This document shows positions 8,120-44,604 of a stretch of DNA of 64,000 nucleotides, piece by piece. This stretch comes from Azolla caroliniana. Lineage: Eukaryota > Plantae > Polypodiophyta. The notes under the pieces are model-generated. The model saw only the letters and a program-made list of their open reading frames with translations, searched no databases and was not told where the DNA came from. The stretch covers positions 6,138,001 through 6,202,000 of the forward strand of contig JBHGNT010000017.1 in NCBI GenBank assembly GCA_043228905.1, written 5' to 3'. The stretch's first letter is position 1, and each line of letters begins with the position of its first letter. The translations under genes and the position numbers were made by a program.

Positions 8120-8831
8120 ACTTTCACGTTGTCTTATGTCTACGCTTCTAGGCGAGCCACACCACGATAACAGTTGGCTACATTCCTAAACTCCAAGCAA
8201 AGACGTGTTGGGAAACAGGTCCCTTCGGATGGGAAGAGACGAAAGAGTGGAAATAGATAAATAGTGATCAACAAGATATGACAAGATAGGATGTAAAATG
8301 ATAATTGAGGGAATGTAAGAAATTTAAAATTATTTCATGAAAGAGTTACAAAATGGCTACGAGCGTCATTGAACTATCGAACTTTGTCTCACAAGGTAGT
8401 TGCTCTTTTCTTTCTTTGTAGTAGACCATAATCTTCCCTTCTATCTTTCGATGAGGATAAGACTCGAACCTCCGCCTTTTCGTTGCAAGTTGAGCACCGC
8501 CGTCGCCAAGCTAGTTCTTCTCTTGTCTTTTGAAGATTGTATATAGGTTTTACCTTCTCTCCCTCTTTCTTTATTATGATATCTCGTACAATATAATTTC
8601 GATCAATTCCATACAATAATTCTATTCAATATGATTGATTGATTCCTTGATATCCTTGTGACTACACTCCCTTCTCCTTTTATAGGAAGGGGATGGTTTT
8701 GCATGTGAACCATATGTCACACATGCAAAGAGGGCTCTTGCAAGTGTGTTATATGGTGCACATGTATTACATGGACTATACAATGCTACTTCAAATAAAA
8801 CAAGACATTTTTGTTTTTTTTACAAATATAA

Positions 8832-8903
8832 TGAGTATTGGCTAAATGTTAGGCTTTGAGGTTCATAATGTGGAGGTTGTTGGTTCAAGTTTTCTCTTGC
8901 CCA
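8832..8903 (+). promoter_or_regulatory. tRNA-like Pol III A/B-box module 1 in 3' LTR of B (copy at ~19036-19107)
   Basis: TGGCTAAATGTT (8839) ... GGAGGT ... GGTTCAAGT (8882) ... GCCCA; tRNA-like spacing of 43 nt. Confidence 0.7.
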
Positions 8904-8971
8904 TGATATTATATATGGTGCACATGTAGTACATTATATGGTTTAGGAATAAGACATATAGTTATATACTA

Positions 8972-9043
8972 CAATTATTGGGTAAATGGTAAGGTTTTAA
9001 AGTTGTAAGGTGGGGGTTATTGGTTCAAGTCCTCTCTTGTCCA
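8972..9043 (+). promoter_or_regulatory. tRNA-like module 2 in 3' LTR of B (copy at ~24834-24905)
   Basis: TGGGTAAATGGTAAG ... GGTTCAAGTCC (9022) ... GTCCA. Confidence 0.7.
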
Positions 9044-9160
9044 TGTAATATAATATATTTGTTTTATTTGCCTTTACATATAATGTATAATATTATCATA
9101 GTGTGTTTATAATATTACCTTTATAAAACATTATCAAGCTATATTTTATTTTAGTTACGT

Positions 9161-9952
9161 TGTCGTAGTGTATTTCGTACACTACGTGAAAAAGTAAAAA
9201 TAATATAAATGATTTAATTACATATAAATAAATAAAATAAGAATATCAAAATATTTATCACATGCATAGGGCAAGATTCGAACACTGTACCTCCACGTAG
9301 CCAAACCTCAACTTTACCATTATGCTACCTTATCTTTAGTGTTTTGCAAATAGATTTAATAACTATAAGTGCTTTATTTGCACCTACCTTTATTAAAAGG
9401 TAAATCGTGCATTTTTAGAGTGCGTGAATATTTTATAGAAAAACGCAAGCAACTAAAAAGTGACTCATGCACATCTAGCGTGCATGAGCACTATATTTAG
9501 CAAATAAAAGCAAGGATTAGAAAAGCATCACATGCACATTTAGTGTGCATGAACATATTAGAAAAAAAAAGCATGTAGCTATGCTTAGTCTCTCCCATCA
9601 CTACATAAGGATGGGGAGCACAATGTAATAGGCGTGTGAAATATTTGGAAATTGGATATATTTCCGAAAACACCAACCGATTAATATAATCGTGGGATTC
9701 ACGAAAATAATATAATCTATACTTGTGGGATTCACAAGTTTCTTATATCTTTCTTTCAATCTAAATACATATTCTTATCTAAATATTGATTAATCGAATA
9801 CAATACACTCGTGGGATTCACGAAATTTCTATCTCTCTTTCTAATAATCTATTCATTACTAGCCTCATCTCATATTCTTCTTTCTCCTAGTCCAAAACCT
9901 CGGCGGTTCCCACCCGACTCACGCAAATGATCCGGAGCCGAAAGGCACGACA
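9161..9952 (+). mobile_element. Solo LTR (TGTCGT...ACGACA), 4-bp TSD ACGT
   Basis: Absent from B's other LTR (empty site TTAGTTACGTATTT near 25175-25188); ACGT at 9157-60 and 9953-56; antisense tRNA-like module ~9264-9335. Confidence 0.92.
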
Positions 9953-12078
9953 ACGTATTTATCTTTTTGTAGAATTTTAATGTGAAGCTTTCGTACTTCA
10001 CGACATCCACCCCCTCTAGACCTGCACATCCTCCAACATGTGCCACTATCTTTCACCTTCATGTTGAGCTATTGGAGGAAGTTCGAGCTCAAACCTTTTC
10101 TTAAATACTTTTATCCTCTTTCTAACTACCACGTTTAGGATTAGTTTTCCATCCAATTCACTAACTTATCATATACTTTTCTTACTATGTAAGGCCCAAA
10201 CCATCTTTCAGCAAACTTGCATAGGGTGTTATGTTGATTATCTAAACTGTCATCATACACAAGCACCCAATCCCCTTCTTCTATCTTCTTATGTCAAATT
10301 CTGTGAGTTTTATCAAAACGAATTTTATTCTTTAGTCGAGCTTCCTTCAATCGTTGGGCTGCTAATTCTACATCTTTAGGCTAACACTCTAATTGTTGAA
10401 TTCGCAAAGCAAGCCATTCTTCTCTGCTCACCTCCTCTCTCTATGGAATAGATATCCATGACATAATTGATTCTTCTACCGGCATGATGGGCTTTTAGCC
10501 AAGTATCAATTCAGTTGGCATGTATCCTATTACCGAACTATGCGTTGTCTGATCCGCCCATAGTGCATAAGGTAGCATGCGTGGCCAATCTCTTATTTTA
10601 CCTTTACAGCTTTTCATGATCGCCTAACTATTGGGATATGTCCTCTTTCAATCTTTCCATTGACTTCTGGATTATACGCAGCTGTAAGTGATTATTTGAC
10701 CCCTATCCAGCTGAAGAATGCTCTAGCTTCATCAGAGTCAAGTTCTCCTCAATTATTTTACCAACACACCCGTAACAACATATTACATCTTCTAACAAAA
10801 ATTTACATACAGCTCTAGTTGTTTTTTGTCGTAGTGGTCTTCCTTCAACTTGGTTTGTAAGGTCTTCTCTCTTGCTAGTACTAAGTATCGCATTTGACCT
10901 TCCCCAAGTGGCATTGTCACTAGATTGACCATCCATTTATAATGCATTGATGATGAATATGTTGGTTTTAACTCATCTTGATATCGAATAGTTGAATACC
11001 TCTGGTAGACTTCACAGGTTTCCACAAATTTCGTTACATCTTTATACATATGTGGTCACCAATACTTTTCTTTCAACTTCATAAATGTTGCCCATATGCC
11101 TCTATGTCTTGCCCACAAACTATCATGGAATTCATTAATTAATTTTCTCTTAATGTCATCCTTACAAATGACTAGAAGAGGATTTTCGGTTGGCCTTTTT
11201 GGGCGCCTCCATAAATGCCCTTCACATGAAAAAAACTTGAATACTCGTCTTCGAAATTCATTTACTGGGTTCATGGTTCTAATGTATGCCGTAATTCTGG
11301 GTTCATGGTTCTAATGTATGCAATCCATTGAAGCATTGCAATATCTCGTGTGGTGCAACTTGCTATCATTCCGATGAGTGGCAAACAATCTGTTTCAACC
11401 ACTACATCTGCTCCGATCAGGTAATCTCTATCTGTTTTTAATGCAATAAGCAAACCCAACAATTCTCGTTTAACTTGTGCATAATTTCTTTGTCTTTCAT
11501 TTAATATCTTTGCTCCAAACCTGATAGCATATTGATGTTGGTCTTCATCTTCTTGGTTGATAACCCAACTGATCCCAATTGGGCTAGTATCAACTGTCAC
11601 TATAATTGGTCTTTCACTATTGTAGTTTGGTTGACGAAGAACTGGAGCTTTCAACAATGCTTCTTTCAATTGTTGAACAACTTGTGTATGTTCATCAGTC
11701 CAAATAAACTTCTTCCCTTTTCTTAAAAGTTAGTAGAGAGGATCTGATACATGTGCAAAGTGTGGTAACCAAATATGATAAAACACACATGCACCTAAAA
11801 ATCTTCTCACCTTTGTTACCGATTCACAAACCTCCTTCATAATTTGTATTTCATTAATTTTGATCGATGAAGGCTTTCTTCCATACCAGCCACACATATG
11901 ACCAACTATCAGAACTTCGTTCTGCCCAAAGCTTGACTTTGTTCCTGATAGTGTCAAATGTACCTGCTCAAGCTTATTTAAAATACTTTCACAATCATTA
12001 ATGTGATCCATCACAAAGTTTCTGCAACTATTTCTAACCATAGCCTCATCTTTATCTCTTTCTAAGCATCCCTTAATA

Positions 12079-14932
12079 AACACGTTCGTGTTCACAAGTG
12101 GAAAGATCGCGCATTCCATTTATAGATTCCTTTTATAATCTTGCAATTTTAGAAAATTTTCAAAAACTTGATACACCAGTATCACATGTTTTAAATAGTA
12201 TGTAAAATTTGCTAATTTTTGGATATTTAAGAAGTTTGAAAATGATAATTTCTAAAATTGAATAGTTTTTCATTAAATGTTTAAATGTTGATGGTTTGTA
12301 GATATGAAATGTAGTTAACTTAAAGAAAATCACAATGGTTAACTCAAGGCACAAGTTATGATTAATGGTTTCACCATCTTGATGAGATTAAGATTACATC
12401 TTTTGTTAGACTTGAAAAAGTTTTAAGTATAAGTGGTAACATTGCAATCCTTAATGTCATCATCTATAAATTTATTGCTCATTAACATCCATCAATTCAC
12501 AACTCAAGAAACGTAGACAATATTCATAAACAATTTTGATAAATCCACAACTCCTAAAATGTAGATGATATTCATAAACTGTCAAAACTGTCAAACTTTA
12601 GATGTGAACATTAATATATCAATTTGAACATATCACACAGTTATCAGGGTATCTACAATGTTATCCTCTTCTTCCTTTTGAGAATTCCCCTACAAAATTT
12701 GTGAAGTAAATGGCATTTGCAAAGTTCAATTACCATCAATAAAATTATTAATGGTTTTTTGCTAATCAATGAAGCACATGTTCACCATAAGGTATCTTGT
12801 TGTGCAACATACATCTTTGGTGTATCGATATGGATCTTTTTCTCTTGTAAAAACATAGATTTCAGTATAATTTGAGTTTAGTTAAAAAAGCTCTTTTATT
12901 TGAAAAACAAGAAGATTTTTAAACATGAACTTGATATGTTGTATCGAGTTGATGTAAAAAATAGAGTTTTGATCATAATTCCATACAGTGTATTGAATTC
13001 ATGTTCAAAGTTTTTTTTATCGGATTTAAAAAAAATTAATAATAATAAGTTGAGCTTGAGTTCATATAAAAACAAGATTTTTCATCACAATTCGATACAA
13101 TGCATCGAGTTCATGTTTAAAGTATATTTTTCTAATTTTTTTCTATTTGTTTCTATTTTTTTGATTTTTTTGATTTTTTTCTATTTTATTTATGGAAAAA
13201 AATATATTTAAACATGAATTCGATATATTGTATCGACTTGTGATGAAAACTCTGTTTTTTTCATCATTTATTAAAGCTCCAAAAAAAAAAGAAAAAAAAA
13301 AAAGAAAAAAAAAGCAATTTAAAAAAAAACCCCAAATAAAGCTTTAAACATGAACTCGATACATTGTATCGAGTTCATGTCAAAAAGTTAGCTTTTCAAC
13401 ATGAACTCGATCAAATGTATCGAGTTCGTGTCAAAAAGTCGACTTTTCTACACGAACTCCATACATTGTATTGAGTTCGTGTTGAAAATCTAACTTGTTT
13501 AAAGCTTTTCTTTTGGGTTTTAAAAAAAATGTTTTTTTTTCTATTTATTTTGGTTTTTTGTTTGTTATTTTTGAATTTTTGTTTTGAGCTTTAATGAATG
13601 ATGAAAAAACTAGAGTTTTCATCACAAGTCAATACAATGTATCGAATTCATGTTTAAAATTATTTTTTTCCTTAAACAAAATTGAAAAAAAGAAAAAAAA
13701 GAAAAAAAGAAAAAAGAAAAAAATACTTTAAACATGAACTTGATACATTGTATTGAAAAATCTGTTTCTTATATGAACTCAAGCTGAACTTACTATTATT
13801 AATTTTTTTTAAATATGGTAAAACAAGCTTTGAACATGAATTCAATACATTGTATGGAATTATGATCAAAACTCTGTTTTTTACATCAACTCGATACAAC
13901 GTATCAAGTTCATGTTTAAAAATCTTCTTGTTTTTCAAATAAAAGAGGTTTTTAAAACATGAACTTGAATCGTACTAAAATCTTTGTTTTTAGAAGAGAA
14001 AAAGATGCATATCGATAGTCCGAAGAAGTATGTTGCATAACAAGATACCTTGTGGTGAACATGTGCATCATTGATTAACAAAAAACCATTAATAATTGTG
14101 TTGATGGTAATTGAACCTTGCAAATGTCATTTACATGGTCTATAAAGTATTCTCGTGGTTCTCAATGAGCACTTCAAGCACTTAATGTTGATCTTCATAG
14201 TTTGGTTCATCTACAACAGAGAAACATTTATGTGGAACAAAAGATGACAACACGAGCATAACTAAGGTGACAAGGAAACTTGCAAGAACTCAAGGTGGGG
14301 ATATTAATAACTACACATGTAGATGGCCATGAGCTAGGGTACCAATTCTGCATTGGTAAAGTTTTGGATGTGATGATGCATTAAACCTTTGTAATACGTC
14401 TATCATTGACATTAGTTAGGTGGATATCATTGTGTATGACTTTACACTGACAAAAGTTGGATGTTTAAGGACAACAACGATATACATAATAAAAGAGATA
14501 TTACCAAGTCTAGAAGATATCTCAAATTGAAGGTGAAGAAGATTTAGTGCACACAATTTGGAGACACCATTTGGTGAAGACAATGATTTGATTGGTACAT
14601 TTGAAAATGAGGAGGAAGAGTCAAAGTTGTATATTATCTATAGGAGTGATTCTCATGAAAAGAATGATGATATTTATGCAAATAACCCCCAAATGTATTT
14701 TTTGTGCAACTGTGTAACAAATTTAGACAACATTTTATCGAATGAAATAAAAACGTTCATTGTTTTGAAATCCTCTACTTTTGATTTCTTTAAGATCTAA
14801 AAACTTATTAGTTGTCATTTTTCTTTAAAAATACACAAAGTTACCTTTTATATTTGACCAAAAATTGGCATTTTTCAATTTTACCAAATGGTGAAAATTT
14901 TCAACTTTTTCACTTGCAAACGCGACGCAATT
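12079..14932. mobile_element. Non-autonomous DNA transposon / fold-back element inserted in RT of B
   Basis: Splits IPI|KGC; imperfect terminal inverted repeats (ACGTTCGTGTTCACAAGTGGAAA vs GCGTCGCGTTTGCAAGTGAAAA); TSD ambiguous (TA/ATA). Confidence 0.75.
12706..14134. repeat. ~1.4-kb inverted repeat built from about 12 copies of a ~33-bp palindrome
   Basis: Arms begin GTAAATGGCATTTGCAAAGTTCAATTACCATCAA and its reverse complement ends at 14134; unit ACATGAACTCGATACATTGTATCGAGTTCATGT. Confidence 0.9.
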
Positions 14933-16100
14933 ATAGGAATACCATCTAAAAATGGCATAGTTACCTTTGGGATGTACTCATGTAGAACTTTGTTCATTGC
15001 ATTCATCATATGAGCAATTGAATTTGTCGCACCTTGAGGTAGAGTGCACATTCGAACCAATCCAATTGGTGTTTTCATTGTTGTAATATTGCAACTATCA
15101 ATTGCTAGCTGAAATTGGTCGTATCCCGAATATAGGTCTCCCATAGAGTAAATTGCTCTCCCAGCAAAAGCTTCCGCAAATTCATCAACGATTGGTTCGA
15201 TTCCTGCATTTCGGATTGTGACTTTGTTGATTGGTTGTAGATCTTGAATGAATCTTAGAGAACCGTCTTTCTTTGGAACTATGAACCATCTATTGGAGTA
15301 TGGTGCATTTGAAGGCTCTAAAATCTTCATCTTGATTTTATCCTTCAGTAGCTCCAACAATTGAGGTAATCGAGCTCTCGGTACTGCAATAGGTTTAAAA
15401 TTCCAAGGAATATGAGGGATAATAAATATTACTATTGGTGTCACCACCTTTGGATCTACACAACCAATCTCCTCAGCTTTGAATGTGAACGCTTTCTCAT
15501 GCCTAAAGATCCTTTTTTTGAAAGTCGTGATCTCTAATTGCAGAAGAAATTCAGCCCCTCCGATTCTCAAGCTATTTATTGTCTCCGAAGTGAAGTGACT
15601 TCTGATCTTCTCTATTGGTCGAAGCATAGGCTCGGTTGTTGTTGCCTCCATCTTCTCTTCACTACCAATAGGTAATGGTATTGTAGCAGGTTTGACCTTT
15701 TTATCTATTGTTTTGTATTTTGTATTACATAAACTTTCTACTTCTTCATATTTACAATTATACCTATCAATCTCATAATACATATCAATTGAGTACATGT
15801 ATCTTCCTAACACTCTCATCATCTTCTTTCAAATACATTTCTAACTCTTCTATAGTATTTGCAAAAGAAATTTCTTCCAGAACACTTTCGATGTGCTCTT
15901 CCATTTCAAGTACTCCATTATCCTTCAATGCCTGTTGAAACGAATTAGCATTCTTTTTCAAGTTCCTTTTGCATTCATACATCCTAGTCACACATATAGC
16001 ACCACTTTTAGAAACATGAAATGACTTATTCATATGTTGTAATGCCCTATGTGAGGGTCCTTTAATAATGGGACTATTGAAACCCTCATTTGCAACAGTC

Positions 16101-18275
16101 CTAGTCAAAACCTTGATTATCAAAATCATCACATTCTTTTGGTATCGAATGATCACGAAGATCTTGCTTGTTCCTCTCATGATTTGGGCGAACTGTCATA
16201 AATTGTACAGTTCTTCGTCCATCTTGGCTTCGAATCTTCGCATAGGCAAAACCATTGTCAAGGACTTTGGTCTCCATCCGTACCGTTGTGATGTATGGTT
16301 GCCCCAAGATTATCAGATAGGTAGATCCTTCCTGCACAAAGAAATGTTGATCTACCTCTATATCACCAATAGTAACCTTTACATTTGGGCATGCACCAAA
16401 TAAATCTTCGATGACTGATGTGGCCGCTTTTACGCGCCAACCATGTTGAGTATCAATTGGCCATCTACCTTTCTTGTAAAAATCAACACTCATTATATTT
16501 ATTTCAGAACCATGATCAATAAGGGCCATAACCGTGTCTGGAACATTTCCAATCTTCACATGATGCTCAGTAGTGGCTCTTGCCCAACATTTGCGGGAGT
16601 AGTGGCTTCTTGCATCTGTTGAACTTATCATTGAGGTTGATGCATGTTGAGAGTCAACAAGGATATTGTTCGACTCGTTGATCACCACTTCATATGCCAC
16701 CTTCGGATTTGTCTCTTTAACCTGCTCATTTACTTGCTTCTTTCTTCGCACAATATCAATTATTTCATCATGAAATTCCTTTTTCGCAATACCTAACACT
16801 TCTCTTAGTGTAAATTCTACTCGACTGTCTAGTATTCTTGTTTCTAAAATTTTCTTTAAATCTATATCATTTTCAACATCAGACATTAATTTGAATGAAG
16901 GACTAGATTTACCTTTTTCGATTTTTGTGTCCATCTCTTTTCTTTTGCTTTCTCTTCTCTCATGCTTTTTTGTTGAGCCAATCTCATCATCTGGCCTTTT
17001 CCTTTTTTCTTTCACTATCACCTCATGCTCTTGGTGTTCTGCCATCTGAGCATAGACTGTCATAGCATCTAATGGAACATCCCATCTAGTGTTTTTTCTT
17101 ACAGCATCTCCGGCAACACGAAGGTCTTCCATCTTCAACTTTTGCTTTTGTGTGGAACTTACAACCTTCTCCCAAAATGATGATCGGTATGGTGTATCAT
17201 CAAGACGCATTCCTATCGTTGCCGAGTAGTACATTGCAGAAGCCTTTTTTGCTTTAGCTTCTTCAAACTTAACCTTAACACCACCATCACCAAAGTTCTT
17301 TGTAAGTGGACTTCTAGTTTCAGTTAAGTAAATGTTACCATTTTTCCAATAGACCAAGTCTCGATTTTCCATGTCTTTATATTCTTCACAATCACGTAGT
17401 CGATGTTCGAGACTATCACACCACATACATCGAGGTCGAAATGGTTCCCTTGACCTCGAAGTCGGACCATTCTCAAGCTTTGCCACTTTAATTGTTAGAT
17501 CTTTAATACTTTGAACTAAATCATTAAGCAAAGACTCACTCTTAGTTTCGGTCATTTCTCGTGGTTGATCGACCATTTCATGTGATGGTTCTCGACCAAG
17601 TCTTTGAACTTCGATGTTTTGCTCAAGCCGATTTGTGATTCCCACATGTGGTATTTGTAGCATTGCACCATTGCTTTGCATTCTTTTCATAAATTTATTA
17701 CAAGCATTTGTTACCTCATTCCAATATGCAGTTATACCATCCTCGATATTTGGTACTTCAAGCATAAATTCCAATTATTTTCTATATCTCTTGTCAACTG
17801 CCTGCAAAAATAAAGCAACCTTTTGCCAAGACAAAGAATTTCTTTCTTCTAGCTTTAAGTGTCCATACAATCTATCAAACTCTTTTCTCGTGTCAGCCAC
17901 AGATAATCCTTTATTTTCTTTTAGGACCTATTCATGGAATGAACGCATAGTAATGCGAGAGAAATCTTCACACGAGTATTCAGACACAAGTGCTTCTTTG
18001 AATGCATTTCAATCCAAACTATGCAATGTTTGTATTTCATGAATTCTATCTCTTAATTCCATGTCCACTAATTTATAAAATTTTGCTATCATATTGACAT
18101 CATTCACACCAGACATTTCCATTTGATCATAATATATATTCACATACTTTGAAATATTTGTGCCATCAAACACACCAATCTTCTCACGGACTTCTCGTAA
18201 GGCATGAAATAATTTATCTTGGTTCAACTTTTCAATAAACAACCTTACCGGATCCATTGTGCTTGTACTTGCCAT
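16101..18275 (-). pseudogene. Gypsy B gag-protease
   Basis: FDGTNISKY; zinc knuckle CMWCDSLEHRLRDC; protease ALIDHGSEINIM...ILGQPY; breaks near 17775-18009. Confidence 0.88.
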
Positions 18276-18320
18276 GTTGATGTTGATCTTTACTTTAGAT
18301 GTCTCTTCTACTTCCCCATT

Positions 18321-18337
18321 TCACGTCGGGTTCACCA
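18321..18337 (-). promoter_or_regulatory. PBS complementary to tRNA-Trp 3' end
   Basis: TGGTGAACCCGACGTGA, 5 nt from LTR end; tRNA identity from recalled plant tRNA-Trp sequence. Confidence 0.8.
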
Positions 18338-19179
18338 AATAGTGTCGTGGTGGGGCTCGCCTAGAAGCGTAACATTGCGTAGACAGAAGACAACATGAAA
18401 GTGAGGAAGGAATCGTTGGGATTTTGGACGGAAGAGACGAAAGAGTGGAATAGATCAATAGCGATCAACAAGATATGACAAGATAGGATGTAAAATGATA
18501 ATTGAGGGAATGTAAGAAATTTATAATTATTTCATGAAAGAGTTACAAAATGGTTGCGAGCATCGTTGAACCGTCAAACTTTGTCTCACAAGGTAGTCAC
18601 TCTTCTCTTTCTTGATAGTAGACCATTATCTTCCCTTCTATCTTTCGATGAGGATAAGACTCGAACCTCCGCCTTTTCGTTGTGAGTTGAGCACCGCCGC
18701 CGCCAAGCTAGTTCTTCTCATCTCTTTTGAGGATTGTATATATAGCTTTTACCTTCTCTCCCTCTTTCTTTATTATGATATCTCGTACAATATAATTTCG
18801 ATCAATTCCATACAATAATTCTATTCAATATTATTGATTGATTCCTTGATATCCTTGTGACTACACTCCCTTCTCCTTTTATAGGAAGGGGATGGTTTTG
18901 CATGTGGGCCATATGTCACACATGCAAAGAGTGGTCTTGCATGTGTGCTATATGGTGCACATGTATTACATGGTTTAGACTATACAATGCTACTTCAAAT
19001 AAAATAACACATTTTTGTTTTTTTTATGCATATAATGAGTATTGGCTAAATGTTAGGCTTTGAGGTTCATAATGTGGAGGTTGGTGGTTCAAGTCTTCTC
19101 TCGCCCATGTGATACAATATATGGTGCACATGTAGTACATTATATGGTTTTTAGGATTTAAACCATACAATATTTCTTC

Positions 19180-24795: not shown

Positions 24796-25233
24796 ACTTC
24801 AAATAAAAGAAGACATACAGTTTTAAACATACTACAATTATAGGGTAAATGGTAAGGTTTTAAAGTCATAAGGTGGGGGTTATTGGTTCAAGTCTTTTCT
24901 TGTTTGTGTAATATAATATATATATGTTTTATTTGCTTCTACATATAATGTATAATATTATCATAGTTAGTTTTTAATAGGAAATTGATAAATTCAAAGT
25001 TTTTTCCGTATTTTCACAGTTTTTTTTTTAGTTCAGAAATATGATTATTTGCACTACAAATGATAGCCAAATTCCATCCCCCCAAAAAAACTATGAAAAT
25101 ACGGAAAAAACTATGAATTTACCAATTTCCTTTTAATATTACCTTTATAAAACATTATCAAGATATATTTTATTTTAGTTACGTATTTATCTTTTTGTAG
25201 ACTTTTAATGTGAAGCTTTCGTACTTCACGACA

Positions 25234-31095: not shown

Positions 31096-32308
31096 TGTCG
31101 TGAAGATCTGTCACTATGCGCGGATCGTGAGGCGGAACCGCCAAGGTTCTGGAGCGGAAGGACTTGAAGTTGGCGCAAGCTTTAGCGAGAAAGTACTTAA
31201 GCTAGATTGAAAGAGAGAGAGAGAGCTTGAGATAGAATAGAGCGCTTGACTTTAGATTGAGAGAGATTAAGATTGAACTCTTGATTTTAGATTTTAAGAA
31301 ACAAGTTACATGATCAATTCGATAACGAATTCTCTTCTTCTTAATTTCATAACCCAAAAGAAACCTAACCCTTCTTCTTTTTCATCCCTTCTTTTATAGA
31401 TGCTCTCATGCATATGATGCATGTGAGGGTACAAGACATGCATAAAATGCATGTTTGCCATTTGGCGCTCATGTATTACATGTGGTGCATGTTAACCATG
31501 TCACTCATTTTAGCTTTCATGTATGAGAATTTCCATGTAAAAGTACAATGATAGAAATATAATTTCAACTAAATATCTTGGCTTAGTGGTAAGCCAATTG
31601 ACTCCTCACTTGGAGGTGCAAGGTTTGAATCCTTATTTCTCCTCCTTGTATATATATATGTATATATATTTATATATTTATTTATCTAGTCGTCGGATAC
31701 CGCCGGTTACCGGTTGCCGTTGCCGGTGACCAGTGGCTGCCGCCGGATGTCGGTTCCACCAGCTCCATCGCCGGTCCAGTTTTGGTCGGCCAAAACCTTT
31801 ACGGGTGGCTCTCATGTATGAGAATTTCCATGTAAAAGTACGATGATAGAAATATACTTTCTACTAAATATCTTGGCCTAGTGGTAAGCCAATTGACTCC
31901 TCACTTGGAGGTGCAAGGTTCGAATCCTTACTTGTCCTCCTTGTATATATATATATGTATATATATTTATATATTTATTTATCTAGTCGTCAGATACCGC
32001 CGATTACCGGTTGTCGTCGCCTCACCAGTGCCGGATGTTGCCGGTGACCAGTGGCTACCGTCGGATGTCGGTTCCATCGGCTCCATCGTCGGTCCGGTTT
32101 TGGTCGGCCAAAACCTTTACAAGTGGCTAGGCCACCTCCACTCTTAGTTCAAGTTACCTTGAACTCTCTATGCTCCACACATAAACACAAAGATAATAAC
32201 TTTTGCTCTACCTTATATATTATGAGAGCCGTATTTGTCGTGCCTATGTGGGATATCTCACAGTTTTCTCTTTTCCTTTCACAAACTTTATACCCTCATA
32301 TCTTGACA
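31096..32308 (-). mobile_element. LTR-derived insertion (TGTCG family) in RT of D with ~295-bp internal duplication; adjacent host deletion
   Basis: Starts TGTCGTG after MTTVR; U5-like end resembles 9890-9952; D resumes at KITQRL with the QMDV/LKQAPR region missing. Confidence 0.78.
31867..31938 (+). promoter_or_regulatory. tRNA-like module with consensus A and B boxes (second copy ~31572-31643)
   Basis: TGGCCTAGTGG (31874) and GGTTCGAATCC (31917); T-arm-like AAGG-TTCGAAT-CCTT. Confidence 0.8.
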
Positions 32309-34583
32309 TCATGCAGGAAGATTACGCAACGATTGCGTACAATGGGGTTTGCGCCATCGAAGTCAGACTCTTCATTGTTCACTCGGCAAGGTTGACATGG
32401 AGCGGTTTTTCTTTTACTTTATGTTGATGATTTAGTCATCGCCGGTGTCGACCTGGATGAAATCAATCGCGTAAAGTGTCACCTTGCGGCATCATTCGAC
32501 ATGAAGGATCTTGGAGACCTTCATTACTTTCTTGGGATCGGAGTGATCCGCACCCTCGAAGGTATATTGATCAGCCATCGTCATTACGCGCTAAATATGC
32601 TCTTCAAGTTCGGGATGGCATATTGTAAGCCCATCTCGACCCTTATGGTTAGAAACGTCAAGCTTCGCCGAGATTCGGGTAAGGCGTGTGACCCGACACG
32701 GTTCCGACATATTGTCGGAAGCCTAATCTATTTGACGATCACTCGGCCGGATCTCAGCTACCCGGTCGGCTTGATCAGTCAATTTATGTCGCAGCCCACG
32801 GCCGAACACTTTCAGTGTGTGCAAAAGATACTGTGATATGCCACCGGCACTAAAGACATGGCGTTGCTGTATCGGGCAGGCGTAGACGAACAATTAGTTG
32901 GCTACACAGATGCCGATTGGGCCGGAAATGCCAACGATCGAAGATCCACATCCAGATACGCATTCTCAATGGGAACTGCGGCGATCACGTGGAGTAGTAA
33001 GAAGCAGCCGAGAGTAGCATTGTCGAGCACGGAGGTTGAATATCGAGGGGTGATTGTCGCTACGTGCGAAGTCATTTGGCTAAAACGGCTAATATGGGAT
33101 CTGCATGTGGAGGTATTCGCTCCGACAACGATCTATTACGACAACCTCAGCAGCATCCAACTTGCGAGAAACCCCGTATTTCACGCTCAGACCAAGCACA
33201 TTGAGGTGCATTTCCATTTTATCTGTGAGCGTGTCCTTTCCGGTGAAGTCGAACTAGCGTATGTTCCGACTTGTTGGCAGATTGCCGACGTATTCACCAA
33301 GCCGCTTACGACAATTCTCGGATGCGATTGGGTTACGCCACCTCGACACACCGAACATAAGGGGGAGAAAGGAACAGGAGTGTGAGCTTGAAAGGAGCGG
33401 AAAGGATCATCGCAGCGGAATTGATCACCGCGATTTCGGGTCGGCTAAAGAAGGCGAAGATGAGTACAGGGGCCGTAATCGTAGGGAAGAGCCGAAGTCA
33501 TCCAAAAAATGGGGCGATAAGGCCAAGACCAAGACTTGGTCTGACATTGTCAAAGGCCTAAAGACTGAAAACGAATTGGAGACAACCAATTCAAACATAA
33601 ACGAAAATGAATCGAAAGTGACCGATTCAATCGAAATGTTTGATTTGGACATGCCGAATCAACTGTGGACCAACTGGAGGAAAGGGCAGCGAAAGAAGAG
33701 ATATCACCGCGATAACAAGGGAGCTCAGAAGGGCCGCACAAGCAGACAAGCCGACCGGAAGGGTTGAGGCGCACGGAATCGAATGGGTTGAGGCGCGCGG
33801 AATCGAACGGGTCGAGGAGTGTGTGTGAGGCGTGAAGCCAGGAGAAGCCAGAGTGAAGATCCGAAAGAGCGGGCGGAACCTCAAGTTGAGCTTGAGGGGG
33901 AGTGTTGAGATACAAGCTCAACATTGGGTGTGTAAACCAATGCGTAGACTGGGTGCGTAAAACTGTCCGCAAAAAGGTCGTAACGGTGCATAAGCCGAGA
34001 GGCCGTTAAAGCGCTATTCCTCGTAAGGAATAATTTTGGGAGTTAGGGTAGGAGGCTAATTGATGAGCATTGAAGTATGTGTGAGTACTCTGACAGTACT
34101 TCTGTTAAGAGTCTATTACTAATCAATAGACCAAATCAAGTAATAAGGAAGAAAATAGATTGGATAGAAGAACCCGTTCCACCCGACCACCCCCGAGCTA
34201 TGATCTAGACATAGCCAACCTACCACCGACGTCCCATACCGCCGGATATTAGGATGACTAATACCTTGGAAGAGATAAACACGATCGTCGAGACGAAAGC
34301 CTAGCCCGCACCACCGGTGTCTACGACAGCAGCCTTCCGACGTGATGATCCTTATGAGGGTAGCTAAGCCTCATATTTATACCTTTTCCTAGGCCCCTTG
34401 AATAGATGTGCCTTTCTAAAAGGCTCTCTATTCATTGGTTGTCTAAATCATGATAGTGCATGCACATATCATTCATTCTATCCAATCATTAGTCCCCTTT
34501 TTAATAATAGTGAACATACCCTTCACTAATGTAAATATTAGCGACCTACCCTCACCAACGTTATGTGTACATAACATACTCCC

Positions 34584-37500
34584 CTACTTCAAAAGATTGC
34601 ACTCTTGCAATATAAAGTGAGGAAATTGTGCCTTAAGCGAATGCTCGCGTTCCCATGTGGCATCATCAATAGGTTTATCCATCCATTTGATCTTGAATAG
34701 CCGAATCTCTTTAGAACGTAAACGTTTAGTACGAGAATCAAGAATTCGTTCAGGAACATGAGGTTTGTAAGAAAAATCCTCTAATGTTACAAGATCTTGG
34801 ATTGTGATGGTGTTATCACCAGAGCCTAAAAATGGTTTTAGACGACTGACGTGAAAAACAGGATGAATACCAACGTTACGAGGTAAGGCAAGGTGATAAG
34901 CAGATGACCCAACTCGCTTAAGGATTTCAAATGGGCCACAATATCGTGGGGCTAACTTAGCGCACTTGCCCGTAGATAATGACGTAGAATCAGTCGGGAC
35001 ACGCAAAAAAACTTTTTGACCAATAGTAAATGCACGAGGACGTCTATCCTGATCAGCATAAAATCGAGCACGATCTTGAGCTGTCTTGACATTTTCTTTG
35101 GCAATATGCAACATTTGGTTCATGTCTTGCAAAAAATTGCGTGTACTGTCTAATGTATCACGATGAATCGTGACATCAACTGGGGCACGTGGCTGAAAAC
35201 CATACATCAACATAAAAGGACTATATCCAGTGGATGTATGTTTAGAGCTATTATAGGCAAATTCTAAGATAGGAAGGTATTGCTCCCACTTAGAAGGGGT
35301 TTTTGCTACATAAGCTCGAAGCATGTCCTCAATAATTTGATTAACTCGTTCAGTTTGTCCATCAGACTGAGGATGATCTGCGGAACTCATGCTCAACGTA
35401 GTTTCTAGTTTCTTAAAGACCTGAGTCCAAAAGTCACTAGTAAACTTGGAATCTCGATCACTAACAATATCCATCGGTAATCCATAAAAACGAAATAACT
35501 CATCAACAAATTGATAAGCCAACTGTTGAGCGGTTACCGTGGTTTTTGTAGGAATAAATCTAGCTAATTTTGTTAGCCTGTCAACGACAACCCATATGGC
35601 ATCATGACCCCTCTGTGTACGAGGTAAACTAACAATAAAATCCATCGAGATACTTTCCCATTTATTGTTGGGAATATCTAAGGGATGTAAAAGACCAGCA
35701 GCTTTAAGTCGTTCCGACTTATTAATCTGACATTGTAAGCATTGAGTTACGTATTTATGCACGTCAGAGCGCATCTTAGGCCAGAAAAAAGTACACGAGA
35801 TGAGAACGAGTGTGCGTTGTATTCCAGGATGACCAGCAGATGGTGCATCATGACATTCATGAAAAATTTTCTGTTTAACATTTGGTAAATCTGGAACACA
35901 GACCTTTCCACTACGGTAGAGCAAACCGTTTGTAATGTGAAAGGTCGCCTTCGAGGTAGGGTGCTAGTATCGGCATCTAAACCAGATTCGGCTTTCGTCC
36001 AGTATTTTGAGAAATAACTGTCATCAAGGTATTTCCCTCGAAGGTGATCTAAAAGATCAGATTTTATTTCCGTGAAGCTAAGCATGTTAACTTCTTTAAT
36101 GCGACTAAGAGCATCAGCAACGGTGTTCATAGAACCCTTGCGATATCGTATGGAAAAATCAAAATCTTGCATAAGGTCAGCCCAACGGCCTTTACGACCA
36201 ACAAGATCGGGCTGGTCACAAAAATACTTTAATGATTGATGGTCTGTTGTAACCACAAATTTATTTCCATAGAGATAGTGCCTCCATGTTTTAAGTGCGT
36301 TTATCATCGCAAACAACTCTTTCTCTTGAACCGAATACCGAGATTGAGCAGCATCAAGCTTCTTACTTTCAAAAGCAATAGGGTGACCACCTTGATAAAG
36401 AACGGCACCAATAGCATAATCACTAGCATCGGTTTCAATTGAGAAAAGCTTAGAAGGGTCTGGTAATAGAAGAGTGGGAGCTTGACACACATGCTCCTTG
36501 AGTGTCTCAAATGATTTGTCAAGTTGTTCATTCCATGAAATTGGTTTGACAGACTTACGTGGATGACCTTTTAAAAGGTCAGTTAATGGCGTAGTCAATT
36601 TGGAATAGTTACGAATTGATTTTCGTAAAAATCCAACAAACCCTAAGAATGATCTAAGTTCACGAATATTACGAGGAATGGGCCAAAGTTTAACCTTTTC
36701 AATACGAGAAGGTTCAATTTCAACGCCATTTTCTGTAATTAAATGACCTAGGTACACAATATATTTTTGGAAGAAGTCACATTTTGAATGTTTTGCATAG
36801 AAAGAGTTGTCACGCAACTTTCGCAAAACAAATCGAACATGTTGAACATGATCTTGCAAGGTACGGCTATATATCAAAATATCATCCAAGAAGACGACAA
36901 CAAAATCACCGAGTTGATCTCGGAAAACATCATTCATCGCTTGTTGGAATGTGGCTGGAGCATTAGTCAACCCAAACGGCATGACTAAAAACTCATAATG
37001 GCCATAGCGCGTACGAAAAGCGGTTTTAGGAATATCATCCTCGGCGATGCGAATCTGATGATAACCAGTTCGTAAGTCAATTTTCGTAAAATATCGAGCC
37101 CCGTGCAAACGATCAATCAAATCATCGGCACGAGGTAATGGATATGCATTCTTAATTGTCATTTTATTCAAACGGCGATAATTGATACACATTCGCCACG
37201 AACCTTCCTTCTTCTTGACTAATAGAACTGGCGCACCCCAAGGTGATTTACTATACCTAATGTGGCCCATACTCAAGTATTCCTTAAGTTGTTTAGCGAT
37301 CTCATCCTCTTCTAATCGACTAAGTCGGTAAGGTGGAATGCTCACAGGAGCAGCCCCAGGGATGAGTTCAATTTGATGGTCCACATTACGTTTAGGTGGT
37401 AAAGTAAGCGGTAATTCAGTAGGAAACACATCTTGAAAATCCTCTAAAATAGAGTCGAGTAATTGTTGCTCAAAATGTGGTAATTGTGTGGCGTCAATAT

Positions 37501-38987
37501 TAAAATAATAAAATTGAACCGCAGGATCAATTACACACGAATAAATTAATGAACTAGAATACTCACTTAAAGATTTAGAAGACACAAGTGAATGAGAAGG
37601 AAGTTTGGAACATTGAATAAAATGTTTACAATTATTAAGTTCAAATGTGATTGAGTGATTAACCCAATCAATGGACAAAGAAGGGTTTTTATTTAAAAAA
37701 CCAAGGATATCCTAAAATGACATCTGCGGATTGTAATTTCATAACATGAAAGTCAAGCTTCTCCAAATAAGTATCTATTTGAATTGGCAGTTGACAAACA
37801 ATGCCACTGATGTATTGAACGTTTCCATTTGCCATGTGAACTTGATAGATATGATCACTTGCGTTTATGTGGAGCTCCATTTGCTGCACAAAGTGATCAT
37901 TAAGAAAATTGTGAGAACTACCGGAATCAAACAAGAAATGTGCTTGTGTTCCATTGATATATCCGACTGCTCGGAGTAAATCATTAGGTCCAAGTAAATG
38001 TGAAGGAAAAGTGCATTCACATAAACTTAAGTGATTGGTATGAACTTCAACAATATCAAAAGACTCACCTGTGTGAGTCGTAGATTTGTCTTGAGGAGGG
38101 GTGTTCATTGACTTCCTCTCAAGACGACGACAGGTATCCTTTGTGTGGCCCCGCTTCTTGCAATATGCACAGAAGAGGTTCGGTTTCTTTGAGTCGCGGT
38201 CAAGAGTGTCACTGGATTGCTTACGTTTCCCAATGAACTTGACATTCGGAGTTTTGGCGAACTCAGGTTTATTGTGGTCTTTCTTGGAAGTCCTATGGTA
38301 TCGCAACACAATGTTGACGGCTTCCTCGAAAGTTGTGGGGTCCTTGTCATGGACAATCCAATGATAATCCCCATTGGGAATACCATTCAAAAAACAAGCG
38401 ACAAACCATTTCTCACCCGTAAGTCCCGATTTTTGGATCTGGGTCCGAGCGTGATGCACATAATCCTCGAGAGAGGTAAATGGCTTACTAGACAATGTGA
38501 GCAAGTGTTGCGCTTGTTCGGTTTGAGAAGGTGGCTGCAAGAATTGTTTCTTAAAAACATCAACGAAACCTTCCCAAGTTGTGGGTAAGTTTTTTGCGGT
38601 CCTTAGGCCACGCCACCAAGCAGCAGCTCGGCCACCTAACTCACGACCGACATAACCAATTTTTACTGCATCGGGCTTGGGATGAAGCTCAAAGTGAGAC
38701 TCCCAACGACCAAGCCAAGTGCTAATGGCCTCCTCGGTTCTTTCTTTCTTATCTCCCTTGAAAGGCGTGACTACGAAGGAAGGTTCACCTTCTTTCTTGG
38801 ACTCAATAGTTAATTCTTGGAATTTCTTTTCCAATGCCATATTGGCCTGTCTCATTTCGGCCAATTGATTCAAGGTAGTAGTGAGCAATTGCTCAATAGT
38901 GATCTCAGCTTGTGTGCGAGATGCAGATTGGGGTTGAGAGGTCTCATTTGGAGAGATCGTTCCAACTGCGTTCAAAACTTGTTCCAT
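34584..38987 (-). CDS. Gypsy E gag-PR-RT-RH-INT-chromodomain, three ORFs joined by two frameshifts
   Basis: [70 protein letters not shown]...IKW...DATWE. Confidence 0.93.
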
Positions 38988-39974
38988 GATGCACGCTGTG
39001 GGTATGCAATAAAATAAGGAGGTTCAGAAAATACACAAGCAAAATGAATGCTTGAAATTTTGATTGAAAGAACTTTATCCAAGAAAGTATCTCATGTCTT
39101 TACCCCTCTAGACATATGAGATGTGATTCGAGATCCGATAACTATGGTAACACTATGGTGTTTTAAAAACCATGGGGGAAAACATAGCTAAGATGTATTT
39201 CTCGGATCTCTATCTTGAGTAATCATGGCGGCTCCCCGAGGCTCAACCATGGTTCTTACATCAATGAAATTTCCTAGATAGCCTTATATTAATGCCAACC
39301 CATCATGTATTATATGGTCGAGAAAGTGTATTACGTGAAAAAACAAGTGCACTCACAAGTAATATTCTAGTCTTGCGAGCAATAAGCAAACGTGATGATA
39401 AAATGATAAAATAAGGCACTACTCATAAGAGTTAAGTAGTGACGAAAACAAGGGTAAAAATAAAAAAAAAACCCATGTGTTACCTACGAAAAAAACAATG
39501 TCACAAATAAATGGGAAGTGCAAGGTATGCACATATACATCCCAATATGATTGTTATAACTTGCACAATTGTGACATAAGCCACAAATTGATACAAGTGA
39601 TGACGGTGTTGTGCGCAAAGATGTAATACTCAAATCCATGAGTAAAACATCAATAAGGGAACTCATATGGTTTTACTCGTTTTCTAAGGCTTGATGATAA
39701 GAGTTAAACCTAGATGACCCGTTGAAAAAAAATTGTTCAACAAGCCACTCCATACGAAAAAAATAGTCTACACGTAAAGGTTACATTAAAAATAAACGAT
39801 GTAAATACTTTATACATGAAAAGGAAGTGGAAAAAGGATAGTTAATTGTGGGCGGGTAAATAATAATTACTAGAAAATCATATAAGTGAAACAATACTTA
39901 TGAAATTAAAATTTAATTAGAATAATCAACAATTAGGTGTATGGAATCAAACATGCCCTAAGATACGAAACCCT

Positions 39975-40310
39975 AGGGTAGTTGACATGCACCTCCTCAA
40001 GACCACCACATATCCCTAGAATCGGCCAAGTAATGGCTAATTAAAGAGGAAAGTGGCATAGGTAAGTGACATATACCTCGTCAAGGCCACATCATCCCTT
40101 AGAATCGGCCAATTGATGGCTAATTAAAAAGGAAAGTGGCATATGTAAGCTACATATACCTTGTCAAGGCCACAACATCCCATAGAATCGGCCAATTGAT
40201 GGCTTAATAGAGAGTAGAGTGGCATAGGTAGGCAACATACACCTCGTCAAGGCCACATCATCCCTTAGAATCGGCCAAGTGATGGCTCAATAGAGGGGAA
40301 GAGTGGTATA
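39975..40310. repeat. ~83-bp tandem repeat x4 in 5' leader of E
   Basis: AGAATCGGCCAA near 40018, 40101, 40183, 40267. Confidence 0.85.
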
Positions 40311-43300
40311 CTCAACATCATATGCAAAACGGCCATGAGATAAGTGTGTGATTAGAGCAAACACGCTCGACCCAATGCACAAGAATAATTATTATCGTAA
40401 GAGTTCAAGAGAGGAGAGAGTGGGATATATATCGCAATATGCAAAAGGCCATGAGTTGAGCGTGTGCGATTAGTGCAAACACGCTCGGCCCGATGCATAA
40501 TAATAAGTAAAATCGTAGCGTAGTAGGAGGTAGAAAGAAAGAGAATAAAACGTAATACCAATTTGATTCGACCATAAAGAACGCATAATAGAAAAAGAGA
40601 AGAGATCAAAAAAGAAGAATACCGGGTTTAGAGTGTTGTTTTGATCCTGAGAAGAGCATGACGAGCCTTGTTAGATCCCCCTCGCTCACACGCAAAAAAC
40701 ATCAAAACAACAAAAAAATTGTTAGTAAAAGCTCTGATACCACTGTTAAGAGTCTATTACTAATCAATAGACCAAATCAAGTAATAAGGAAGAAAATAGA
40801 TTGGATAGAAGAACCCATTCCACCCGACCACCCCCGAGCTATGATCTAGACATAGCCAACCTACCACCGACGTCCCATACCGCCGGATATTAGGATGACT
40901 AATACCTTGGAAGAGATAAACACGATCGTCGAGACGAAAGCCTAGCCCGCACCACCGGTGTCTACGACAGCAGCCTTCCGACGTGATGATCCTTATGAGG
41001 GTAGCTAAGCCTCATATTTATACCTTTTCCTAGGCCCCTTGAATAGATGTGCCTTTCTAAAAGGCTCTCTATTCATTGGTTGTCTAAATCATGATAGTGC
41101 ATGCACATGTCATTCATTCTATCCAATCATTAGTCCCCTTTTTAATAATAGTGAACATACCCTTCACTAATGTAAATATTAGCGACCTACCCTCACCAAC
41201 GTTATGTGTACATAACAACTTCTGCCTGTCCATAAGGACTTGTATAAAAAGCGTCGATTGAGCGCATCTTATACAGAGCAACGGACAGTTATTTTTGAAT
41301 CTAAGTTTTGTGTGTTCGGCTCACACACACACTCTCTCTCATTCTTTGTCTCTCCTGGTTACATTCTGTCGTGTTCAAAGCTTTCCATTAAACCTTCTCT
41401 TCATCATCTATGTTACACGGTTGTGTCTGTTACATTTCCACACACGTTATTCTTTTACAATTATTGCTTAGATAGCAAGGCCTAACTATTTGGACGTGTT
41501 CACACCAAGATACAAATTGGAAGGAGTCATCCTTTTATGCCAATAGGTCATGTTACCGTACGAGATGTACGGAAAGTAGAGTTTGATGAGCGAGGGTCGA
41601 ATGCTATAATGTGGTCGATGTGTATGACTAAATGTGCACAAGTATAATTGTAAGTATGAGTCGATACTTATGTGAACACATGCACACGTGTGTGAATGTG
41701 GACAGATATGAGGAGGTGTGAGTGAGTGACTAGTGTGAATGGCGAAGGGGGCTTGCACCCCTATGTTCTACCCTTTTGTAACTATTTAACCCCTTATGGG
41801 GAATGAATGAAGAAAGGAATAGTTCTCTCTCAACTTCTCTCTCTCTCTTTGACACCTTTTCTCTCTTTCTCTCTTTCTCCCTCTCTCACATTGAACCCCC
41901 CCTTGGGAGGGGGGTGGTGCCTAGAAATGCTTATCAATGTTTACTCATCTCTCCATCACTCAGCAATGCTCTTCATCGCACCCATCATTAACATCATGCT
42001 ATCATAATTATCATAACCCTAACCCTATACCAACAACACTATTTTGGCGACCACTAAGGCGATCCCCTTTGCAGACGAAGTCGAAGACTAATACGCGGCA
42101 AAGACATAGCAACGATGAATTGTGCGAGAATGGTGGCGATGATGTGCGAGAAATCAAATCGACAATGAGCAACAAATGGCAGTCACAATGTGTGAGACGA
42201 AGTCGAGGAATGAGATGGTGTCGTGAACTAGTTGCTTCACGATATCAAAAATCTATAGAAGTACATTTCCCGTCTAGAGCTTATGACAAGGAGCATGAAG
42301 GAATTTTCGGTTCGTGAATCAGAGTTCAGAAGCCTAAGATACAAGCTTCGGAAGGACTAATGCAACTCGGGACACAAATATAATTATGTAAAAAGGGGGA
42401 TTCGAAATTAAATAAGGGTCATTTTTGTAATTTCTCAAATTTACAACTATAAAATCGAATTTGTAGAATTTATAAATAAAATAAATAATAATAATAAATA
42501 AATAACCGCCTGCATGTGGTGGTCTGTCAACCGCCTCAAGATGGTGGTAGGGCGGTTGACCACTCTATAAAAGCCATGCCCATGGTGGCTAAAATGGAAG
42601 GGTAGAGGGGGGAAATGAAGAGGAGAAGAAGAAGAGAGAGAAGGAAGGACGCGAGGGAGGAAGCTCGCAAGAACAAGGGATGTAGAGGTCGCTCATGAAG
42701 CTAGTGACCTGCTGAACAAAAGACAAAAAGTAAAACAAAGAGATAGAAAAGAAGAAAACCAAGAGGTTGAAGTGGTGTATCTTAAACGCCTTTTTGCAAA
42801 CAAAAGGTAGTGAGTTCGAATAATCTCAAAACAACTTCTGAGACCGGCAGGAAATGTTGAGAATGCACGGGAAATGGTTCCACAAGAAGCAAAGTGGAGA
42901 TAGCCAAGAACGGAATCAAGAAAAGAAAGCCAGCAGGAAGGACAAAAATAGACGAAGAAGGAGATGTGTTAAGGATCTATGTATTGATGGAGTAAGCTCC
43001 TCGATGTCGTGGCGGGATTCGGACCGGTGTATACCCTCTTGATGGCGAATCGGGCGGAAATGGTTGTCGTATACCTCTGAGTCTCACACTCACTTAACGA
43101 TTAGTAAATGATTGAGCACAATATCTCTCTCACTCTTTCAAGCTCTCTCTCATAGACAATAGGTTAATAGATATAGACAATAAGAAGGAAGAGTATGTTT
43201 ATTAACCCTCTTTGCTAAGAGGTCTAGCACCAACAAGGAGAGAGATTAGTGTTCTCTAACTAAACACCTCACTAATCTCTCTTAAACTCAAAGGTTACAA

Positions 43301-43963
43301 GGAGGAGGAGAGGAAGCTCTAGATCTAATCAATAGGAGATCTTTACAAATGGGAGAACCCCCACAAAGCCACTACTATGTGGTTTATATAGCTTTCACGT
43401 TTAGGGTATGGCCCTTTCACACTTGACCGTCTCTTTGCTTTCCTTTCCTCTTGTTGTTTCCTCTTCATCTACGTCCTTGTTGATGCGTTCTTATACGTGA
43501 CTGGTTGTGTTGTTATTCTAGCGCTTAACATCCCCCCCAACCTAATGAGTGCACACCCTTGGGTGCACTGTGGGAGGGGAGCTTCGGGCATCGGGGGCGA
43601 GTAGGATTGAGTAGGGGGGGTTCTTTGGGGGGCGGGGGGCGGCGGAAATGATGGCAAAGACGGCGGATGTTCATTGGTGGTAGTTGGATTTCCTGCAGTT
43701 GGTCGGTTGTTGTGAAGAAAATCTTTCTTGGGGCCGGTGAGCTAGGTGCAGGTGTTGTGGCCGGCAAAGGGAGAAGGGGGGGTATAAGCGGGGGAAAAAC
43801 GTGTGTCAATCATGGTTTCAAAATCCCATTTGTAGGTGGTGGGGAGTACATTGACGCAGGTCCAAAGGCCGACCAGTTGGCGGTGAGTTGGACCTTTATT
43901 CAAATCAAAGGTGAGGCCCCACGCTGGGTGGTTGTGCCGTTGGACGGGGGGGGCTTCGTACAG

Positions 43964-44604
43964 TGTCGCGAAGATTCGCGCGTGCGTGTGCTACTCGAGC
44001 GACCACCGGGGTCTTGGACTGGGGAGGATGTTTGCAGAATTATCGAAGAGATGATGATCAATGTAAGATTAGATGAAATTGGTTTACTTGAGAAGAAGAA
44101 AGATTGTACACTTGAGAAGTAGAAAATATGAAGAAGATAAAGACAAATATAATTATATTGATGATAATGGTGTTGGTGATATCACATATTGAGCCCCCCT
44201 TACACCAAGCCCAACTAGAGGCTTTTATAGGTCTTTCCATGCTTGTGACATGCACAAAACCATGGGCTAAAACCATGGTTTTGTGCACACGGTTTTGCTT
44301 ATGTCATGCACAAACCATGGGTTTAGAACCATGGTTTTGTGCACATGGTTTTCTATGGTTGTTTCATCTATAATTCGTATATAAAAAAGAAATACATAAA
44401 ATCTACGCTATATGATAGTTGTCCTAATGGTAAGGCAATCATCTTTTATCTTAGAGGTGCAAGGTTCAAACCTTGCTTGCACCCCTCTGTATAAACTCAA
44501 GTGCCACTAGGCCTTAGGTTTATTTGCTAAGTGCATGTGCAATGTTGCACATCCTTGGTTTATTCGTCTCACTCGGTTTCACACCGTAGCCGAAAATCGT
44601 CACA
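43964..44604 (-). mobile_element. Solo LTR (TGTCG family), 4-bp TSD ACAG/ACAT
   Basis: Removal with a 4-bp duplication restores DSGP-LYEAPP; tRNA-like module 44413-44484 (TGTCCTAATGG 44420, GGTTCAAACC 44463). Confidence 0.82.

Follow-up and report, generated by a model that had tools for sequence, protein, structure and literature searches.

Background

The long terminal repeats (LTRs) of several small retrotransposons carry what is left of RNA polymerase III (Pol III) promoters. In Helenus (TRIMp3), a group of miniature terminal-repeat retrotransposons (TRIMs), the LTRs hold a tRNA-like unit in which the A and B boxes are conserved while mostly no functional tRNA remains, as reported by Kojima 2024 (PMC10886601). 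Helenus is non-coding and 311-1263 bp long; insertion of a short interspersed element (SINE) into an LTR was proposed as its origin, the boxes were proposed to drive its own transcription, and one plant family, from Selaginella, is described (PMC10886601). The same paper mentions that not a few LTRs in Repbase have tRNA-like parts, analyses only those shorter than 1000 bp, and expects autonomous elements to differ (PMC10886601). Two further TRIMs, Cassandra and Ajax, likewise possess a Pol III promoter remnant in their LTRs; there it is 5S-derived, both elements are non-autonomous, and Cassandra is transcribed from it (PMC10886601). Here we describe tRNA-like units, mostly antisense, in the LTRs of Gypsy-type retrotransposons, found in a 64,000-nucleotide stretch of the fern Azolla caroliniana (contig JBHGNT010000017.1, positions 6,138,001 to 6,202,000, assembly GCA_043228905.1), referred to below as the window.

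These units share with Helenus the presence of A and B boxes of tRNA origin in the LTR and, as Helenus TRIMs show the same box conservation, they are of a kind already known. On size, coding capacity and orientation, however, they fall outside Helenus: their carriers are ~7-8 kb long with gag and pol, the solo LTRs of the window match LTRs of coding elements, and the unit, mostly antisense (in 10 of the 12 LTR types that bear it in U3), is located upstream of the TATA box, in some cases in two copies. Target duplications differ as well, with 5 bp in plant Helenus (PMC10886601) and 4-bp NCGN in the present carriers. The first-pass annotation of this DNA knew of no description of such units for plant Gypsy LTRs. 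For autonomous plant Gypsy and Phygy elements this agrees with our literature searches, which found no tRNA-like LTR unit described (Repbase and the Helenus supplements lay outside the search and may hold some); it does not extend to plant LTRs in general, as the published Helenus units include those of Selaginella (PMC10886601). The unit is real and selectively constrained, while its function, as a candidate site for the transcription factor TFIIIC, is what we infer from its sequence.

tRNA-like units in the window

Nine tRNA-like units with A and B boxes about 43 nt apart had been listed in the first-pass annotation. All of them were recovered on the same strands and within 1 nt of their positions when the window was scanned for A-box/B-box pairs, using the textbook consensus in IUPAC code, allowing up to two mismatches and taking 15 block shuffles as control; the spacing was exactly 43 in 9/9 units. 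Twelve pairs were found in total, against a shuffle mean of 0.07 (maximum 1). The three extra pairs were a second register of the unit at 31579, an opposite-strand overlap (44514-44462) and a sense unit (18710-18657) that had been overlooked and is present also in the related locus L038. A second detector, a matrix trained on the nine units, gave no match in 13 LTR pieces of the window that belong to Copia, chromovirus or further families (5,489 bp scanned, compared with 5,678 bp of Phygy-type LTR in the window), and its sole further match in the window, at 11266 within a short repeat, was weak (16.3). The units are located in both LTRs of a decayed element, A, and in the solo LTRs B1, B2, C and D:

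8832-8902, plus strand: unit A1 in the 3' LTR of element A, antisense to the element; A box at 8839, B box at 8882
8972-9042, plus strand: unit A2 in the 3' LTR of element A
19036-19106, plus strand: unit A1 in the 5' LTR of element A
24835-24905, plus strand: unit A2 in the 5' LTR of element A
9264-9334, minus strand: unit in solo LTR B1, antisense
27894-27964, minus strand: unit in solo LTR B2, antisense
31572-31642, plus strand: unit in solo LTR C, the copy closest to the TATA box, within a tandem duplication of ~295 bp
31867-31937, plus strand: second copy in solo LTR C, with 0 mismatches to the A/B consensus
44413-44483, plus strand: unit in solo LTR D, antisense
18657-18710, minus strand: additional A/B unit in sense orientation, in the 5' LTR of type A, on the R/U5 side downstream of the TATA box
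8460-8508, minus strand: twin of the type A sense unit, in the 3' LTR, with spacing reduced to 38

In LTR D the B box is near-palindromic and a second A box lies opposite to it on the minus strand (44462-44514, spacing 42), giving two opposed units with one B box. The placement of the unit in U3, antisense and upstream of the TATA box, was confirmed in the LTR types of the window, and the orientations previously deduced for solo LTRs B, C and D are matched by LTRs of coding relatives. The ends TGTCG and CGACA, attributed to every LTR, proved less uniform: C is without its U3 start, D starts with TGTTG, B2 ends with TGACA, and in the 3' LTR of element A the U5 end has been rearranged.

Conserved boxes and lost cloverleaf

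Among 17 representative units, a set biased by its box-based detection, pairwise identity averaged 0.67 for the A box, 0.81 for the GGAGGT stretch and 0.82 for the B box, whereas the anticodon arm reached 0.41 and the acceptor halves and flanks 0.34-0.35. The AGGT at positions 44-47 of the unit was outside the IUPAC query; it was found in register in 14/15 antisense matches of related loci (the best 80 of 173 confirmed loci from a scan of metagenome contigs). In four between-lineage pairs whose homology extends along the LTR, differences were seen at 4/72 box and AGGT positions versus 60/180 positions elsewhere in the unit (Fisher p ~1e-6), so that between diverged LTRs the boxes are indeed conserved far better than their neighbours, as had been claimed. 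No such sparing was seen in three post-insertion pairs, a small sample, where 3/54 box positions differed versus 9/135 elsewhere. The lack of box protection after insertion points to selection on the element rather than on the host.

The cloverleaf, by contrast with the boxes, has been lost. Its expected pairs occurred in 49.0% of cells versus 48.8% in shuffles, and Watson-Crick pairing reached 21-47% in 15 units versus 83-97% in 79 real viral tRNAs, which were found with the same DNA pattern in a viral collection and served as positive control. At its default threshold ARAGORN reported no tRNA either in the window or among 24 units, and with relaxed thresholds the isotypes were inconsistent. 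Rfam searches yielded no tRNA match, and RNA folding gave no z below -1.91. With identity near the level of flanks and pairing equal to that of shuffles, the acceptor stem and anticodon are, as first stated, not conserved. The unit as a tRNA gene was ruled out, there being no paired cloverleaf or stable anticodon. From the kept boxes, the lost cloverleaf and the missing post-insertion protection, it appears that selection on the replicating element keeps a DNA motif and not an RNA, and the sequence speaks more for a role in DNA binding than for a structured RNA.

This bears on the idea that the unit is an active Pol III promoter, whose selected product would be a short antisense transcript, complementary to the genomic RNA at its U3 end, that regulates copy number or is a source of small RNAs. 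Both boxes are kept together with their canonical spacing, while a site for TFIIIC only would need mainly the B box; the 30 nt upstream of the units are 67-87% AT, and a run of four T (T4) follows within 40 nt in 8/15 units. Against this, neither RNA structure nor spacer is conserved, T4 occurs inside the unit in 3/15 and is missing from the downstream 40 nt in 7/15, and the CAA motif known from plant tRNA genes is absent from positions -10 to -3 in 15/15 units. We consider such an RNA product unlikely. Alternatively, the letters might be kept for another DNA-binding factor (a Pol II enhancer or tethering factor) in place of TFIIIC. The AGGT at 44-47, conserved like the boxes yet lying outside the textbook boxes, would fit such a factor; on the other hand, the A/B consensus is followed so closely, both in the positions that are kept and in the 43-44 spacing, that we find it quite improbable.

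Carriers resemble Phygy

A single Gypsy group for all four LTR types, as first proposed, was supported by their shared primer site and NCGN target duplication. The near-invariant primer-site motif of the window is also present in 40/80 related loci, and the primer-binding site of the group is a putative tRNA-Trp site. The 4-bp NCGN duplication is represented in the window by ACGT/ACGT at B1 and B2 and by the single flanks CCGG and GCGT, and in related loci by NCGN in 9/13 mapped 5' flanks. Domains follow the Gypsy order of gag, protease, reverse transcriptase (RT), RNase H and integrase, and in the relatives two long frames span the region from primer site to polypurine tract. No chromodomain was seen in the group, as judged by frame length and inspection, no Pfam scan of the C-terminal pieces having been made. 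The nearest named RT relatives come from a fern (Adiantum) and liverworts (Riccia, Calypogeia), while the viral collection searched contained no relative of the element RT.

Phygy was described by Neumann 2019 as a non-chromovirus Ty3/gypsy clade with a 4-bp NCGN duplication and a size of 7.7-10 kb (PMC6317226). Our group is like it in this duplication, in an interior filled by the coding region, in showing no chromodomain and in a size near 7.7-10 kb, and the Phygy table of that paper gives a tRNA-Trp primer site in 81% (PMC6317226). From the NCGN duplication, the common primer site and the size, the group can be regarded as Phygy-like, by comparison with the description of Phygy and not with its proteins. 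As published, Phygy is from Physcomitrella only, and a tRNA-like unit in its LTR is not known from that description (PMC6317226).

Distribution among related LTRs

In the 80 related loci the IUPAC scan gave 21 matches (15 antisense and 6 sense) versus 0-2 in five shuffles. Single linkage of 45 LTR stretches from 41 loci, together with six window pieces, resulted in 28 LTR types, with L035/L037 counted as lacking the unit though their LTR boundary is doubtful, and with L068 showing 318 nt only. A U3 unit was antisense in 10/28 types (window LTRs are among four of these ten), sense in 2/28 (L011-13 and L016) and absent from 16/28; among the ten antisense types, L075 is weak and L041 has its spacing shortened to 32 nt. 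The lineage-wide presence originally proposed was thus not confirmed. Neither was a restriction to LTRs with TGTCG ends: in L001 (3827-4116) and L076 (1661-1856) the same antisense unit lies ~80 nt from the end of a different LTR-like insert and is followed by CATG palindromes. This insert starts TGTCATAACC, its left flank is non-NCGN, and a TATA box is present in L001. Owing to the different end, both loci were dropped from the Phygy LTR units; they are still within the identity set and the set behind the 49.0% pairing figure.

RT identity among unit carriers ranges from 64 to 98%. Frames of gag and pol were intact in 7/8 checked unit-bearing loci, and likewise in several non-carriers. In a quick, provisional RT tree, from which the number of captures cannot be fixed, the unit was absent from all five types on the branch with the named fern and liverwort proteins. 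The U3 of L006, L007, L009 and L021 and window positions ~32140-32280 have a different block in common, which contains a TATA-like motif; LTR types with this alternative block are mostly without the tRNA-like unit, and window LTR C has both.

One locus, L046, possesses a mosaic 5' LTR (6905-7564), in which start and U5 are of L050 type while the U3, including the unit, is of L040/L041 type and begins at its own TGTCG. The RT of L046 is 96% like that of L050 and 72% like that of L040, and the first part of the mosaic was found in L045 too. Barring assembly chimerism, this indicates that a U3 cassette moves between families.

The patchy presence could also reflect repeated capture of the heads of host tRNA-derived SINEs into a permissive AT-rich U3, in which case the units would be functionless hitchhikers with boxes due to the needs of their donor. 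Such capture would account for both orientations, for copies downstream of the TATA box, for copies in a different LTR-like family (L001, L076), and for a weak match outside any mapped LTR (L023:12069), the only copies outside Phygy LTRs that we found in the window and the related loci, none being outside LTRs in the window; variants with C56 changed to T are common as well. Several observations do not fit: i) no SINE body or tail was detected, nothing being shared past about position 72 of the unit; ii) direct repeats flanking 14 units averaged 6.4 nt, no longer than the 6.1 nt of cross-pairs and hence at chance level; iii) B1, B2 and L026 have the unit in the same LTR context and position, with differences mostly in the spacer; iv) the distance to the TATA box is narrow and the unit is absent from the 13 other LTR pieces of the window; and v) summed contig depth over the unit, a weak measure, is not above that of the rest of the LTR. 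Taken together, we regard repeated SINE-head capture as unlikely. The first-pass annotation had named two outcomes that would speak against its proposal, namely independent SINE insertions and boxes no better kept than their neighbours. Neither was fully observed, although the orientation of the unit is not invariant.

A candidate TFIIIC site next to the LTR promoter

The nearest A box was 145-197 bp upstream of the motif-called TATA box in 14/16 LTRs and 262 and 274 bp upstream in type B, often with CATG-rich repeats between unit and TATA box. If the element itself were transcribed by Pol III from the LTR unit, in the manner of Helenus or Cassandra, sense copies such as those in the U3 of L011-13 and L016 would be expected. 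Most copies, however, point away from the element, the TATA box lies downstream of them, and internal regions of ~5.7 kb hold 5-11 T4 runs and 1-4 runs of five T (four loci counted), which makes self-transcription scarcely credible.

We favour the explanation, to which we assign a probability of roughly one half, that the unit is an exapted TFIIIC docking site that would keep the Pol II promoter of the LTR open or shielded; it rests on sequence and on analogy with other systems. According to this model, a tRNA gene or a tRNA-SINE head would have been captured once or a few times, and recombination would shuttle the U3 cassette (unit, CATG-rich repeats and TATA box) among families. TFIIIC, with or without TFIIIB, would bind the motif made up of A box, AGGT and B box, the antisense orientation would make any Pol III transcript head away from the TATA box, and bound TFIIIC might keep the Pol II promoter, 145-200 bp off, open or shielded from silencing. 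Families without the unit use other U3 sequences, which suggests that it is an optional part.

The analogy is with yeast and animals, where tRNA genes (tDNA) and extra-TFIIIC sites, A/B-box DNA without a functional tRNA, are proposed to act via TFIIIC, and where barrier function of tDNA in yeast as well as TFIIIC-only sites have been described (PMC9540200, PMC11346459). Those barrier sites are host loci with demonstrated function, whereas the present units are retrotransposon cargo with a putative function (PMC9540200, PMC11346459). Autonomous plant retrotransposons may have domesticated a tRNA-gene promoter as a U3 cassette that is portable and swappable and that supplies a divergent TFIIIC site protecting the promoter; this is a tentative proposal, possible but less than probable. 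The site would then lie upstream of the LTR TATA box, at a distance of about one nucleosome, in an element that inserts into CG sites. In trypanosomes, small-RNA genes are accompanied by divergent, oppositely oriented A and B boxes of tRNA type a short distance upstream; the partners there are Pol III genes, while the Phygy-type partner is a TATA-type LTR promoter.

A number of points weigh against a TFIIIC docking site. Sixteen of the 28 LTR types do without the unit, some of them with intact frames; sense copies occur within U3 in L011-13 and L016, and downstream of the TATA box in L015, L038, L040 and window A; and the unit of L041 has a spacing of 32 nt. Box positions were set by combining a textbook consensus with the AGGT observed here, and a box-weighted matrix detected most units of related loci. 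In the contigs of four sequencing runs over the B1 unit, the B-box-breaking change of C56 to T made up 15-30% of summed contig depth in 4/4 runs and exceeded CpG change in the spacer in three of the four. TFIIIC is, moreover, reportedly excluded by CpG methylation, and a review of plant barriers contained no case of a plant tDNA/TFIIIC barrier in the part consulted. In favour of such a site, no indel appeared in the same contigs at the 20% level, and their loose ends continued into other spacers and then an A box.

If an antisense, box-only unit is selected in coding elements, it would represent a second use of Pol III factors by transposons, probably directed against silencing. Were the proposed cassette true, plants would have a TFIIIC-dependent chromatin barrier, built by a transposon for its own benefit and present in high copy genome-wide; high-copy LTRs of type B would spread many candidate TFIIIC sites across the host genome. 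L045/L046 and L050, whose RTs are 96% identical, have sister LTRs of which the former hold the cassette and the latter lacks it, a natural contrast for studying whether TFIIIC sites are barriers in plants.

Host elements and other features of the window

Element A is a decayed Gypsy element on the minus strand (~8232 to 25233) with pieces of a DUF4100 gag, RT, RNase H and integrase. Empty sites for B1 and B2 are recognisable elsewhere in the window. The host elements and LTRs are:

18343-25233, minus strand: 5' LTR of element A, right flank CCGG, broken by a Copia element (19180-24795) and a small inverted repeat (24987-25123)
18320-18337, minus strand: primer-binding site, 5 nt inside the 5' LTR end
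16104-18280, minus strand: gag/protease region with DUF4100, interrupted by stops
10144-15828, minus strand: broken pol with RT, RNase H, integrase and SH3-like pieces, and an AT-rich insertion at ~12120-14880
10006-10017, minus strand: polypurine tract ahead of the 3' LTR
8232-10005, minus strand: 3' LTR of element A, broken by solo LTR B1, with a rearranged U5 end (8120-8169 inverted)
9161-9952, plus strand: solo LTR B1, 4-bp duplication ACGT; empty site in the other LTR of element A near 25180
27796-28568, plus strand: solo LTR B2 within a Copia gag, 4-bp duplication ACGT
31096-32308, minus strand: solo LTR C within a Copia pol, left flank GCGT; the U3 start is gone along with ~200 bp of Copia
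43964-44607, minus strand: solo LTR D, without a matching 4-bp duplication

Integration beside an existing unit was considered as a targeting rule and rejected, only B1 of the four solo LTRs being near another unit. Summed contig depth of the type B LTR (window 9161-9952) was far above that of type A in 4/4 runs, and type B contigs were common to several organisms. Among 20 listed runs none was an RNA run, which has no bearing on expression. The small inverted repeat in the 5' LTR of element A (24987-25123) resembles a miniature inverted-repeat transposable element, and a large AT-rich inverted repeat (12706-14134, ~80% identity) within its RT is probably a DNA transposon.

Elsewhere in the window, a 92-bp unit forms a tandem array at 1-1454 with copies >99% identical, and an exon of a host gene of the Bax inhibitor-1 family is located at 1794-2036 on the minus strand. 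A Gypsy element with a chromodomain, long open frames and LTRs 98.6% identical (34088-41217) is nested in a Copia LTR. Finally, positions 42239-42503 match at 85% the sequence that follows the LTR start of L035, suggesting a further nested repeat.

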